Source of the DNA: a virus
Length of the DNA: 64,000 nt
IMG/VR virus record: IMGVR_UViG_3300028549_001513
Strand: one strand, 5' to 3'
Position numbers and translations under genes: made by a program. Under the pieces are notes generated by a model. The model was not told where the DNA came from. It saw nothing but the letters and a program-made list of their open reading frames with translations, and made no database searches. Position 1 is the first letter of the stretch. The number at the start of each line of letters is the position of its first letter. Below are positions 10,916 through 14,291 of the stretch, one piece after another.

Positions 10916-11047
10916 ATGGCAAAAAAAATAACAAGACAACTAGAAGAAGACCATGCAGCAATACTAAATGATCCAAATTATATAGTTTTTTGTAATAGAA
11001 ACAAAAAAGCCAAAATAAGATGGAAATTCTTTAAAGCCAATGCATGA
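10916..11047 (+). CDS. small ORF (43 aa, MAKKITRQLEED..)
   Basis: Hand-translated. Fills the gap and overlaps the next gene as ATGCATGA. Below the track threshold. Confidence 0.35.
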   Translation: MAKKITRQLEEDHAAILNDPNYIVFCNRNKKAKIRWKFFKANA

Positions 11048-11567
11048 CGTAGCTCTAATATCAGACCCTCATTTGGGCCACCCAGCTATAGCAAAAATGC
11101 GAGGATTTGACGATATTGATACATACAACGAAGAAGTCATAAGAAGATGGAATCTAGTATGTGGAAAGAAAACGTTAGTCATATTGGCTGGAGATATAGC
11201 AATGGAGAATAGTAAATATTATCATTTGCTAGACAGAATGCTTGGAAGAAAAGTGGTAGTAGGAGGAAATCATGACCTTAAAAAGGACATGGAGATTCTA
11301 CTACAGCACGTAGAAGTAGTAGTAGGCGCATTAGAATACAAACACTGTATTGTGACACATATACCAATTCATGCTCAAGAGGTAGATAGATTTTTACTAA
11401 ACATACATGGACATACTCATGCAGATTTAATAAAAAGATGGAGATATCAAGCTGGAGGTTATGTAGCTACTGAAACGGTCGATAAACGATATTTCAACAT
11501 ATCGTGGGATAGATTGGAAGGAATTCCAATATCATTCACAGAATTAATACAACAAAGCAAACTTTAA
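11040..11567 (+). CDS. calcineurin-like metallophosphoesterase
   Basis: SDPHLGH, LAGDIAM, GGNHD and HGHTH motifs in canonical order. Confidence 0.85.
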   Translation: MHDVALISDPHLGHPAIAKMRGFDDIDTYNEEVIRRWNLVCGKKTLVILAGDIAMENSKYYHLLDRMLGRKVVVGGNHDLKKDMEILLQHVEVVVGALEYKHCIVTHIPIHAQEVDRFLLNIHGHTHADLIKRWRYQAGGYVATETVDKRYFNISWDRLEGIPISFTELIQQSKL

Positions 11568-11571
11568 AGAC

Positions 11572-11778
11572 ATGAATGGGACAATAGTATTTCTAACAAT
11601 AACTTTTGCTATAATATGTGGGTACTACATGTCAGTAGCAATAGGATTTTTAATGATGGGGAGGCATAAAGTGCCTAAATATGTAATTGCAATATGGTTG
11701 GTTGTTTATATAATAGTCTTAATAGTAAACAAAGAATACATATTAAATAATCCATATCAAAACTATTTAATATTTTAA
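11572..11778 (+). CDS. small membrane protein
   Basis: Two hydrophobic segments (IVFLTITFAIICGYYMSVAIGFLMM and YVIAIWLVVYIIVLIV). Confidence 0.6.
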   Translation: MNGTIVFLTITFAIICGYYMSVAIGFLMMGRHKVPKYVIAIWLVVYIIVLIVNKEYILNNPYQNYLIF

Positions 11779-11791
11779 AATTCATATCAAA

Positions 11792-11986
11792 ATGAAAAAT
11801 GTAGTAATGCTTGAAGAAGGGAAACGAGGAAGAGATATCCAAGTTTTACGCGAAGTCGAAAAATGCACATGTTGCGGAAATACGACAGAAGTTATAACAA
11901 TTGACATTTCTGATGGAGAATACTCAGAACTAACGCTTTGTCAAAAGTGTATAGATGGATTCTTCAAAGAGCCGTCAAACGTTTAA
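11792..11986 (+). CDS. small zinc-ribbon-like protein
   Basis: CTCCGN....CQKC pairs. ORF track. Confidence 0.55.
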   Translation: MKNVVMLEEGKRGRDIQVLREVEKCTCCGNTTEVITIDISDGEYSELTLCQKCIDGFFKEPSNV

Positions 11987-12021
11987 AAAAAGGAGGGATG
12001 CGTCTCTACAACGCATAAATT

Positions 12022-12049
12022 GGTTTCTTAGCTCAGTTGAATAGAGCAA
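12022..12049 (+). pseudogene. 5' piece (positions 1-27) of a split tRNA-Arg(UCU)
   Basis: GGTTTCT-TA-GCTC-AGTTGAATA-GAGC-AA. The acceptor strand pairs with AGAAATC at 12622-12628. Confidence 0.7.
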
Positions 12050-12079
12050 AAAAAACGCAGTCTATAACTAGGCTGCGTT
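12046..12079 (-). terminator. intrinsic terminator of the minus-strand HNH gene
   Basis: AACGCAG(12054-12060)/CTGCGTT(12073-12079). On the minus strand the stem is followed by a T7-8 run. The stop codon lies in the loop. Confidence 0.6.
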
Positions 12080-12448
12080 TTGAAAATCAAGAGAATGTCT
12101 AAGTCTGTGACAATTAGCACAAAGAACAACGGTTTTTTCCAGTTCTTTTTCGATTGAAATAGGCTTAAGCATCCTCAATTTACCCCATCCAAATTCTTTA
12201 ATAGATGGATCAAGATGATGAAACTCAAAAATTGAATAATTAGTGTCATTAAGAGGAATACTACAATCTTGGCATTTAGAGCCAAATTGATTTATGTATT
12301 TAATTTTCAATAAGTTCCATCTAATTCCACACTTTTGATTAAAGCATCTTTTGCAATAAGACATAGTTGATCTAGTTTTCTTATTTCTCACATAAAATTC
12401 GGAAACAGGATATTCCTGTTTGCACCTGCAACATTGTTTATTTTCCAT
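12068..12448 (-). CDS. HNH endonuclease
   Basis: FEFHHLDP....VVLCANCHRLRHS. Likely ATG at 12448 (MENKQCCRCK). The track's longer form uses a TTG start. Confidence 0.85.
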   Translation of the reverse strand: MENKQCCRCKQEYPVSEFYVRNKKTRSTMSYCKRCFNQKCGIRWNLLKIKYINQFGSKCQDCSIPLNDTNYSIFEFHHLDPSIKEFGWGKLRMLKPISIEKELEKTVVLCANCHRLRHSLDFQNAA

Positions 12449-12501
12449 AATACATATAACGTAAATACGAATAGAATTGTTGTATCTAATCAAAAAAATA
12501 A

Positions 12502-12576
12502 CTTCCGGTAGCTCAATTGAATAGTAGCGACGCCCTTCTAAGGCATAGGTTCTTTGTTTGAATCCAAGTCGGAAGA
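12502..12576 (+). tRNA. tRNA-Arg(UCU), diverged copy carried next to the HNH gene
   Basis: Acceptor CTTCCGG/TCGGAAG. Anticodon loop CTTCTAA. One mismatch in each of the D stem (C.T), anticodon stem (C.A) and T stem (T.C). T loop TTTGAAT. Confidence 0.55.
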
Positions 12577-12583
12577 CAAAGAT

Positions 12584-12629
12584 CGCCCTTCTAAGGCGTG
12601 GGTCAAAGGTTTGAGTCCTTTAGAAATCA
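12584..12629 (+). pseudogene. 3' piece (positions 28-73) of the split tRNA-Arg(UCU)
   Basis: CGCC-CTTCTAA-GGCGT-GGGTC-AAAGG-TTTGAGT-CCTTT-AGAAATC-A. Confidence 0.7.
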
Positions 12630-12654
12630 CAGTAATTAATTTAATCAACAAATA

Positions 12655-12822
12655 ATGGCAAAAATAAAGGCAATAAAAGAATCTGAAGATTATATTAATA
12701 AAATAAAAGAAGGGGTTGTGTCAGTAAAAGTTATTGTAGTAAACGATAATCACACGACGATATTTCAATCCGAAGATATCTTCAAAAAAAAGACAGCAAA
12801 GCCTATAAAGGGTTTTTCTTAA
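12655..12822 (+). CDS. small ORF (55 aa, MAKIKAIKESED..)
   Basis: Hand-translated. Typical ..AATAATG context. Below the track threshold. Confidence 0.4.
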   Translation: MAKIKAIKESEDYINKIKEGVVSVKVIVVNDNHTTIFQSEDIFKKKTAKPIKGFS

Positions 12823-13324
12823 ATGGCAATCAATCAAACCAAAATAAAGTAATTAATTATGAGGAAAGATGAAAACGACCCCCACGTTGTCCGCGTGGGA
12901 AACAGAAAAGACTGCCAATTGGTCGGTGGAGTGCAGTAAGGGGATATGACTTAGCATTGAAACGCTTTATCCCCACAAAAGATTCAGATCAAAGCAAACA
13001 GATACGACGATAGCAGCCTTATGGGTTTATTGGAATTATCAATCTCATGCAGGAGATTAGTTTGTTAGATGTAGCTATAAAACATGGTGCAACAACATGC
13101 ATGTGTGAATCTATTCCGCTGCAAGGACTGAATCCCAATATTAATAGAATCGCGGTGGGCGTGCCAGGTTGGAATCTTGGGTTTCTATTAGGTTATTTGA
13201 GCAGAAATGCTCACTTAGCCACAAATAAAAGTACCACTTGCAGTGTAGGTTTTTACCTAGGCGGAGTCTCCTGAAAGGTATGGAGGTTAATTAGGAGTTG
13301 TTAACCTTAAATTTTTAAAATCTT
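12823..13324 (+). ncRNA. structured GC-enriched leader or island upstream of the sigma factor gene
   Basis: Helices CCACG/CGTGG (~12881-12897), GGGGATA/TATCCCC (~12941-12975) and TGAGCA-GAAA-TGCTCA (13198-13213). tRNA-like minihelix at 13145-13187. Confidence 0.3.
13145..13187 (+). other. tRNA-like minihelix (acceptor stem plus T arm only)
   Basis: TAGAATC - 12 nt - CCAGG-TTGGAAT-CTTGG - GTTTCTA. 6/7 acceptor pairs. Confidence 0.3.
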
Positions 13325-13927
13325 ATGAATATAAAAGAACTAGTAGAGCAGGCTAAATCCGGATCTGAAAAAGCCTTTACTGCATTATATAATCAATATT
13401 ACAGAACAGTATACTTGAATGTATTTAATATAGTAAGGAACAAGGATGTAGCAGACGACTTAACGTCAGAGACTTTTCTCAAGGCGTTTAAGAATATCAG
13501 TAAGTTTACCAAAGATATTTCTTTTGAAATGTGGTTAAAAACAATAGCAAATAATCATTCGATTGACTTTATTCGTAGCGGGAAAAAAGATCAAGACACT
13601 ATTTATATAGACAATGATGAATTGACGGAGTTTATACACACAGACTATTCAAATCCTGAAAAGGAAATGATCAAAAAAGAAGAATCATTTGATTTCGAGC
13701 AAGCTTTAGCGGAGCTAAGCCCAAGATCAAAAGAAGTATTGACTTATAGGTTTCGTGATGAATTATCTTATCAAGAGATCGCAGACAAATTGGGGCTTAG
13801 TATCGGCACAATTAAACATTACATTCACAGATACAAAAAGAAAATAATCCAAAACATTAATCCAAAAAAAGTAACAAAACATGAAAACAAATCAATTGTT
13901 TTTGGCAGGAGTAAGATTCCTAGCTAA
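13325..13927 (+). CDS. sigma-70 family (ECF-like) RNA polymerase sigma factor
   Basis: Region 2-like DVADDLTSETFLKAFKNI..WLKTIANNHSIDFIR. Region 4 helix-turn-helix LSYQEIADKLGLSIGTIKHYIHRYKKKI. Confidence 0.9.
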   Translation: MNIKELVEQAKSGSEKAFTALYNQYYRTVYLNVFNIVRNKDVADDLTSETFLKAFKNISKFTKDISFEMWLKTIANNHSIDFIRSGKKDQDTIYIDNDELTEFIHTDYSNPEKEMIKKEESFDFEQALAELSPRSKEVLTYRFRDELSYQEIADKLGLSIGTIKHYIHRYKKKIIQNINPKKVTKHENKSIVFGRSKIPS

Positions 13928-14291
13928 ATCGTTTTTAGTGGCTTTTATTGGCATTTTCTGTGGAAGTTCTATGTTAAAGGAAAGTAAACTATTCGTAGAT
14001 GTTGATGAGGCAATTGTAAGCCAAACAACAATCGAAACCGTAAAAAGTTTTGAACTACCAAAAGTGAGCAATTCTTATACAATGAACCAATCACAGAACC
14101 ATGGTGTTTTGCCTCAACAAGAAGTTTATACGTGTATTATCAGTAATGAATCCACGATGAATAAACCTTGTCAGAAAACAAAGAGGCGGCAAAATGGAAT
14201 CCAAATGCCTAGTAACAACTTTAACCGCACCACAGATGTCTGCAGGCTTGATAAGCCGCCACGCGGAGATGATATATTGAATTCGAGTTAG
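13881..14291 (+). CDS. possible membrane-anchored protein overlapping the sigma gene 3' end (candidate anti-sigma; speculative)
   Basis: N-terminal hydrophobic segment SFLVAFIGIFCGSS. 47-nt overlap with the sigma ORF. Coding status uncertain. Confidence 0.35.
   Translation: MKTNQLFLAGVRFLAKSFLVAFIGIFCGSSMLKESKLFVDVDEAIVSQTTIETVKSFELPKVSNSYTMNQSQNHGVLPQQEVYTCIISNESTMNKPCQKTKRRQNGIQMPSNNFNRTTDVCRLDKPPRGDDILNSS

Follow-up and report, generated by a model that had tools for sequence, protein, structure and literature searches.

A split tRNA-Arg(UCU) gene enclosing an HNH endonuclease gene and a second tRNA-Arg(UCU) in a phage genome

In our study, a tRNA-Arg(UCU) gene was found to be split by an insert carrying an antisense HNH endonuclease gene and a second, complete tRNA-Arg(UCU). 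The gene is located in the IMG/VR virus record IMGVR_UViG_3300028549_001513, and the whole stretch of 64,000 nucleotides (nt) that was analysed is called the window. The 5' fragment of the outer tRNA (GGTTTCTTAGCTCAGTTGAATAGAGCAA) was present on the plus strand at 12022-12049 and contained the 5' strand of the acceptor stem, the D arm and positions 26-27. The 3' fragment (CGCCCTTCTAAGGCGTGGGTCAAAGGTTTGAGTCCTTTAGAAATCA) was present on the same strand at 12584-12629 and contained positions 28-73, that is, the anticodon arm, the variable loop, the T arm and the 3' strand of the acceptor stem. The break at 27/28 lies inside the anticodon stem. Joined together, the two pieces gave 74 nt (GGTTTCTTAGCTCAGTTGAATAGAGCAACGCCCTTCTAAGGCGTGGGTCAAAGGTTTGAGTCCTTTAGAAATCA). 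Scoring of the joined pieces with a tRNA finder had been proposed in an initial annotation made from the sequence alone; ARAGORN called a single tRNA-Arg(tct) with a cloverleaf and a standard anticodon loop. The four stems were fully paired, and the claim of a joined 74-nt tRNA with perfect stems was upheld in this respect, although the acceptor stem included one G-U pair and was not strictly perfect. The acceptor strands of the two pieces paired at 7/7 positions, the pieces abutted with no loss or overlap, and the cloverleaf energy of the joined tRNA was -19.7 kcal/mol.

The tRNA halves were located by scanning with nhmmer, using a tRNA-Arg(UCU) profile hidden Markov model made from 31 genes. 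This profile replaced an earlier split-tRNA detector, which over-called chimeras of neighbouring intact tRNAs and scored controls alike. The outer 5' piece matched model positions 1-28 (E 0.02), and the outer 3' piece matched model positions 27-74 at 12582-12629 (E 4e-7). A 33-mer spanning the join (AGAGCAACGCCCTTCTAAGGCGTGGGTCAAAGG) was found uninterrupted in no fewer than 120 contigs from metagenomes and at least 120 from genomes; therefore, the join rebuilds a real tRNA-Arg core and is not a matter of chance. Most of the matches were cellular tRNA-Arg genes, for example those of Pasteurellaceae, so the core is uninformative on the host. Both outer halves and the inner tRNA contained the rare A19/U56 pair. 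Covariation of positions 19 and 56 was perfect in 209 distinct classifiable tRNAs from the window and all fetched loci (197 G/C, 11 A/U and 0 mixed, as listed), which supports the earlier suggestion of an A19-U56 elbow pair replacing G19-C56.

The insert between the outer halves ranged from 12050 to 12583 and was 534 nt long. It contained an HNH endonuclease gene of 126 amino acids on the minus strand (12068-12448), identified from the list of open reading frames (ORFs), from the profile PHROG 2255 and from a family alignment. The protein matched PHROG 2255, annotated as 'HNH endonuclease' (E 2e-23), and the profile of the HNH family matched the HNH motif of McrA in PDB (E 4e-5); Pfam gave no match for the protein at E<=0.01. 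The motif layout consisted of three N-terminal CxxC pairs followed by EFHHLDPS...LCANCHRLRH. In the 30-member family alignment, the protein of the window kept all 16 invariant columns (the three CxxC pairs, FHH and CANCH), where H77, H78, N112, H114 and six cysteines were invariant. The predicted structure had a pLDDT (predicted local distance difference test) of 94, with weak fold matches to T4 EndoVII, Cap5 and Gme HNH (E above 0.4), so that the fold search gave no more than a generic HNH-like fold. From its catalytic motif and its match to a curated profile, the ORF at 12068-12448 is predicted to be an intact HNH endonuclease.

An intrinsic terminator of the HNH gene was found on the minus strand at 12048-12080, with a stem (12052-12060/12072-12080) followed by eight T at 12048-12055. 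The hairpin and its U-run aligned with the section of an Rfam leader model that represents a terminator; a simple terminator scan had missed it because of the long outer loop. The minus-strand HNH gene with its own terminator, reported by the initial annotation, was thus recovered. The ORF is separate, antisense and outside any detected self-splicing intron or intein. In the protein collection 128 relatives of this HNH were found. A search of IMG/VR with the HNH protein alone gave no relative, and the family alignment was needed as the query. In every close relative examined, the HNH gene was antisense to the neighbouring genes.

The second tRNA-Arg(UCU), a replacement copy, was complete and was present on the plus strand at 12502-12577 (ARAGORN and Rfam). 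Its Rfam score over 12502-12576 was 34 bits, against a gathering score of 29, and a single mismatch was present in each of three stems (D, anticodon and T), in agreement with the earlier description of a complete copy with three stem mismatches. Its D arm was GCTC/TAGC, with an extra T as compared with the outer copy, and position 26 was G. If restored to the outer form, the inner D arm would read ...ATAGAGCA... The inner-tRNA pattern had no match in IMG/VR, so no donor lineage was found. The default Rfam scan gave a hybrid 'tRNA' at 12548-12629 (36.5 bits), joining the T arm of the inner copy with the outer 3' piece; it was rejected by ARAGORN and is regarded as an alignment artefact of the strong outer 3' half.

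A sister assembly, L085 (Logan, SRR21758068), matched the window over 8,953 base pairs with two differences only. Both differences lie on the plus strand in the inner tRNA, at 12545 (A in the window, G in L085) and 12555 (T in the window, G in L085), and each one breaks a base pair. The anticodon and T stems of the inner tRNA were perfect in L085. The energy of the inner cloverleaf was -15.6 kcal/mol in the window and -21.3 kcal/mol in L085, the two changes costing 5.7 kcal/mol. With random placement, the chance of both differences landing in this 75-nt element was about 7 in 100,000. All three mismatches are present in the window, but two of the three are window-specific and absent from L085; the mismatches are, by this comparison, partly a recent change in the window and not a fixed trait of the cassette. 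Candidate explanations for the stem-breaking pair are relaxed selection, escape from a tRNA-targeting host nuclease, or population polymorphism.

A short element (GAATAGAATTGTTGTATCTAATC) was found on the plus strand at 12469-12491, in the gap that separates the start codon of the HNH gene from the inner tRNA. It looks like a remnant of an older target tRNA, covering about positions 18-40, and it probably overlaps the promoter or 5' untranslated region of the HNH gene on the opposite strand. Similar elements adjoined the HNH start in L094-L096 and were located at the beginning of the 3' fragment in L097 and in the phages Bas92, Ptacy1479 and TH38. A conserved element GGATAGAA(N)...TCTAA was present at 12469-12491 of the window and in L094-L097 and L176. 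In L095 and L096 the element folds as a hairpin, GGATAGAAT-AAAAA-ATTCTATCC. The conserved element is probably a relic of the older target which now acts as the upstream region of the HNH gene.

We surveyed 81 non-redundant loci carrying a relative of the window HNH. A tRNA was present within 100 nt of the HNH gene in 34 of the 81 loci, and a tRNA-Arg(tct) within the same distance in 22. Among tRNAs near the HNH gene, Arg(tct) accounted for 22 of 49, in comparison with 7 of the 198 tRNAs located elsewhere (odds ratio 22 and p 2e-12 by Fisher's test). Half-tRNAs, as detected with the tRNA-Arg profile, flanked the HNH gene at many of the surveyed loci.

The layout of these loci was found to vary. 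In type I, which is the order of the window, a 5' half is followed by the antisense HNH gene, a whole tRNA-Arg and the 3' half. This layout was found in L305 (break at 27-28), L088-L092, L097 and the Escherichia coli phages Bas92, Ptacy1479 and TH38. Such nesting occurred in at least five lineages besides the window, with HNH relatives 45-55% identical. The left junction of type I was always located just past position 26-28. The HNH frame of L088 and of the Kuravirus phages entered the antisense of the target D arm and stopped there. In type II, found in L086/87 and L094-L096, a 5' half is followed by a whole tRNA-Arg, the antisense HNH gene and the 3' half, and the break lies at 33/34. The locus L111 contained a tRNA, a sense HNH gene and a 3' half, in that order. 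An intact tRNA-Arg was present inside the split in nearly every nested case. The outer halves of the window, L305 and L086 paired perfectly despite a divergence of their HNH proteins to about 50% identity, which suggests repeated recent invasions of fresh targets. The outer halves of L088, L097 and the Kuravirus phages were lost or mutated at positions 23-33.

Filled and empty sites were found in Kuravirus. LAMP, a cultured phiEco32-like Kuravirus of E. coli, contained an intact tRNA-Arg, that is, an empty site, with the same flanking genes as Bas92. The flanks of Bas92 and LAMP were identical, and the first 22-26 nt and the last ~45 nt of the tRNA were alike; in place of tRNA positions 23-31, Bas92 contained ~530 nt with the HNH gene (homologue XPK41627.1) and an inner tRNA-Arg, the insertion point being after position 26. 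In Kuravirus, the HNH family of the window thus shows presence/absence polymorphism at one locus. An empty site, as sought by the initial annotation, was found in Kuravirus, but none was found in a relative of the window phage. In Bas92, Ptacy1479 and TH38, the HNH gene, the inner tRNA and the 3' fragment were ~95% identical, whereas the 5' fragments were three different ones and the flanks differed on both sides. A cassette so alike behind three different 5' halves points to movement as a unit; the trio bears the trace of a cassette that was copied whole into several different alleles of tRNA-Arg.

The single tRNA-Arg locus of the phiEco32-like phages (L176-L180, L310-L313) contained at least three unrelated HNH genes across isolates. 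Bas92, Ptacy1479 and TH38 carry the HNH family of the window at this locus, in antisense. Bas93 and O18-011 contained a sense-strand HNH gene after a 5' half, and in Paul a sense-strand HNH gene followed a tRNA that was intact. Unusual genes resembling tRNA-Arg(UCU) were found in L088 (3919-3992), L178 (Bas93, about 1315-1400) and L180 (Bas94, about 1010-1100). They contained a perfect acceptor stem of 7 base pairs, an anticodon arm and a T arm, with no D arm at the usual place; 17-23 nt holding TAATTGGA came after the anticodon arm. The odd copy of L088 scored 36.8 bits in Rfam, and all three genes were missed by ARAGORN. The tRNA-Arg locus of Bas94 holds the D-arm-less form only.

Part of a 4,797-amino-acid ORF of the window was 34.7% identical to uncultured crAss-like phages such as cr118_1, and by this similarity the phage of the window is Crassvirales-like. 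In its large ORFs, AGA accounted for 70% of the arginine codons, as had been expected for the main arginine codon, and AGG for 21%. Together they made up 91%; therefore, the phage plausibly benefits from a tRNA-Arg(UCU). In L212, a contig of a distant crAss-like phage, the homologue of the sigma-factor gene was preceded by an intact tRNA-Arg, 1.6 kb upstream. No GenBank phage was matched by 11000-14000 in a Megablast search, and the exact outer 5' fragment had no match in IMG/VR.

We consider it likely that a free-standing HNH homing-endonuclease cassette invaded a phage tRNA-Arg(UCU) gene at 27/28 and brought with it a variant tRNA-Arg(UCU). The cassette consists of the antisense endonuclease gene with its terminator, the short relic of an earlier target and the complete variant tRNA-Arg(UCU). 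What the sequences show is the make-up of the cassette and its recurrence, its link to tRNA-Arg(UCU) genes, a filled and an empty site and, in Kuravirus, its transfer as a unit. In the initial annotation the insert was read as a selfish endonuclease cassette, disruptive to a tRNA gene but with a diverged copy on board, and this proposal is strengthened by the same nesting in at least five lineages, by the filled and empty Kuravirus sites and by the mobility of the unit. During co-infection, the HNH endonuclease would cut tRNA-Arg(UCU) genes that are still intact in related phages, close to the point where the D stem meets the anticodon stem, around positions 20-35. The break would be repaired from the cassette-bearing genome, with the tRNA halves and the flanks serving as homology, and the cassette would be copied into the target. 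The target gene would be destroyed and the cut site would go with it, while decoding of AGA and AGG would continue through the cargo tRNA. The changed 3' strand of the D stem in the cargo tRNA would probably provide the immunity to cutting.

We infer what the enzyme would cut, that the inner copy would be immune and which tRNA species would be made. In our own reading of the loci, AGAGC formed the 3' strand of the D stem in about nine out of ten 5' halves of targets or empty alleles. The roughly nine inner tRNAs located next to close relatives of the HNH all lacked it and had TAGC with an extra base, TAAC, ATGC, AAAC and others. The presence of AGAGC in targets and its absence from inner tRNAs hints at the recognition site and at immunity. 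A broader reading, to which we give somewhat less than even weight, is that of a widespread natural 'invade-and-rescue' drive, in which one HNH family would target tRNA-Arg(UCU) and carry a cleavage-immune copy with an altered D arm. Such a family would span Crassvirales-like phages, Kuravirus and many uncultured phages, with the point at which D stem and anticodon stem meet as its target.

Several observations weigh against the invasion of a tRNA-Arg(UCU) by a cassette with its own rescue copy. Within 20 nt of the break, the inner and outer copies of the window differ only by the extra T and A26G, and therefore the immunity of the inner copy is not obvious. The two stem-breaking changes in the inner tRNA of the window fit poorly with strong selection on a rescue copy. 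The inner tRNAs are dissimilar between lineages and the order of HNH gene and tRNA varies, so the spare tRNA may have been captured repeatedly and not inherited with the HNH gene. No close relative of the window phage with an uninterrupted outer tRNA was found in the searched collections; the metagenome and genome scans for such a copy gave tRNAs that had no more than the 33-nt core in common with it. The relative L005, with 79% identity in a flanking protein, contained neither a tRNA nor an HNH gene at the locus, and the nearest intact tRNAs among the matches listed in the metagenome and genome scans differed from the outer tRNA at 6-7 positions.

The dissimilar inner tRNAs bear directly on an alternative in which the HNH gene alone is mobile and the spare tRNA was gained separately, at a break-prone site or from a neighbouring tRNA gene. 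Phages that had lost their tRNA-Arg would have been selected to regain one, and the nesting would be the by-product of a recombination hot spot. Such an origin would account for the different order of HNH gene and inner tRNA among lineages, for breaks at 26-28 in some and at 33/34 in others, and for the inner tRNAs of the window, L305 and Kuravirus being only distantly alike. Patchwork fragments in L096 and L094 suggest repeated gene conversion, the Kuravirus tRNA-Arg locus has been visited by at least three unrelated HNH genes, and phage nuclease genes have been reported at recombination boundaries. It is difficult to reconcile, however, with Bas92, Ptacy1479 and TH38, which carry the HNH gene and the inner tRNA together at ~95% identity in three backgrounds, or with an intact tRNA-Arg lying within the split in nearly all nested cases, and we regard this alternative as unlikely, though the most serious of those weighed.

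Bacterial tRNA genes host group I introns, often with endonuclease genes, and the undamaged state of both outer halves would suit an intron, of group I or another kind, whose 534 nt are spliced out to leave a functional outer tRNA, with the inner tRNA and the HNH gene as its cargo. We consider this very improbable. Covariance models of intron families detected no ribozyme core at E<=10 in 11900-13400, nor at E<=1 in six related loci; the break at 27/28 lies in the anticodon stem and not in the loop; and the insert contains a whole tRNA and an antisense ORF, together with a terminator on the minus strand. The loss or mutation of positions 23-33, observed in the outer halves of L088, L097 and the Kuravirus phages, is incompatible with a role of these halves as spliced exons. 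Integrating elements leave partial tRNA duplicates, and the two flanking pieces might be unrelated leftovers, produced by independent deletions of two tRNA genes or by duplication of an attachment site. The 3' fragment is indeed an imperfect match to the 5' fragment in L096, Ptacy1479 and TH38. In the window, however, the acceptor strands pair in full and the pieces abut exactly, the rare A19/U56 pair is common to both pieces, and the junction 33-mer is contiguous in many metagenome and genome contigs, which makes this the least probable of the alternatives. An origin from an integrase and its attachment site was dropped because no integrase was found near the tRNA-Arg locus in the ORF list of the window or the Pfam scan.

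The window contained a second arrangement of a tRNA and an HNH gene at 3221-3894. The tRNA-Glu(ttc) at 3221-3311 was 91 nt long, with an extra hairpin of ~20 nt in the variable region, and scored below the Rfam threshold. It was followed by a sense-strand HNH gene at 3399-3869 (156 amino acids; PHROG 1271 at E 1e-18) and by a displaced tRNA 3' fragment at ~3870-3894, which contained a T arm and the acceptor strand TGGGGCT and pairs with the acceptor of the tRNA-Glu. A non-coding stretch of ~480 nt at 12840-13320, G+C-richer and upstream of the sigma-factor gene (13325-13927), had no Rfam match at E<=10 and may be a structured RNA or a regulatory region. In L005, ARAGORN called a gene resembling transfer-messenger RNA at 1658-1971, with the tag peptide DNKTIKINNYVGIIAA.

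The initial annotation had placed the arrangement outside the known homing cases. This does not stand, since precedents exist in the tRNA-associated SegB and in the replacement-part ORFs of fungal mitochondria. SegB, encoded in the tRNA gene cluster of T4 and T6, is a homing endonuclease of the GIY-YIG family with a free-standing gene, which recognises tRNA gene sequence and drives the inheritance of itself and of neighbouring tRNA genes (PMC2330249). A further report describes a T-stem-loop motif as its target, with no preference for isotype, as well as tRNA gene amplification and a statistical association of its homologues with tRNA genes (PMC13096335). In both SegB and the cassette of the window, the endonuclease gene is free-standing and lies where the phage encodes tRNAs. 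SegB differs in being of the GIY-YIG and not the HNH family, in targeting a T-stem-loop motif of many tRNAs and in sitting between intact tRNA genes, and a split target with a nested replacement is not described for it.

In the fungal mitochondrial case, mobile ORFs (Allomyces atp6; Glomus atp6, atp9, cox2 and nad3) bring a foreign replacement C-terminus, and the original end of the gene persists farther downstream as a non-functional remnant (PMC3630166). As in the window, an endonuclease enters a needed gene and supplies the displaced part. The fungal elements encode LAGLIDADG or GIY-YIG endonucleases and are fused in frame to protein-coding genes, whereas the window contains an HNH gene, a tRNA gene as the target and a whole, separate cargo gene. 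The layout with a 'replacement end' is matched most closely by 3221-3894 of the window and by L111 (tRNA, HNH, 3' fragment). The HNH endonucleases of introns and the group I introns of tRNA genes are alike in that an HNH gene lies inside a conserved gene while host function is kept. In those introns, however, function is kept by splicing and not by a spare copy, and no ribozyme signature was found in the insert of the window, which carries its HNH gene in antisense with a terminator.

The phage nrdA gene split by mobE is a case in which a free-standing endonuclease breaks a conserved gene in two. In 'fractured genes' with split inteins, a free-standing endonuclease likewise splits a conserved gene (PMC2677866). 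In both cases the pieces are functional, as subunits or through trans-splicing inteins, whereas the outer pieces of the window are apparently dead and a separate copy substitutes for them. The logic is shared with the Cas9 drives of insects, by way of design analogy only and with no relatedness to the cassette. In such synthetic cleave-and-rescue or home-and-rescue drives, a needed gene is destroyed by the nuclease at its resident site and a cut-resistant rescue copy is carried along. In the literature searched, where subscription journals were thinly covered and an earlier report is possible, no description was found of a phage tRNA gene that encloses an HNH gene and a spare copy of itself.

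Homing endonucleases are generally considered to persist in conserved genes mainly by way of introns or inteins, or else to sit between genes. A cassette that breaks a gene and brings its replacement would be a third solution, besides hiding in an intron or intein and harmless siting between genes, and this replacement strategy has until now been documented mainly for the protein genes of fungal mitochondria. If the broader reading of an 'invade-and-rescue' drive is true, a spare gene replaces splicing as the way to spare the host. The cassette can be studied in culture, since cultured E. coli phages are available with the site filled (Bas92) and with the site empty (LAMP or Bas90). For annotators, tRNA counts near HNH genes can mislead. 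The proposed reading would also explain the presence of tRNA half-fragments and odd tRNA variants in phage genomes, and it would help to explain the variability of phage tRNA-Arg(UCU) genes. As a side effect, under the broader drive reading, the element would steadily replace and diversify the tRNA-Arg genes of phages, including forms without a D arm and possibly variants which escape the tRNA-targeting nucleases of the host.

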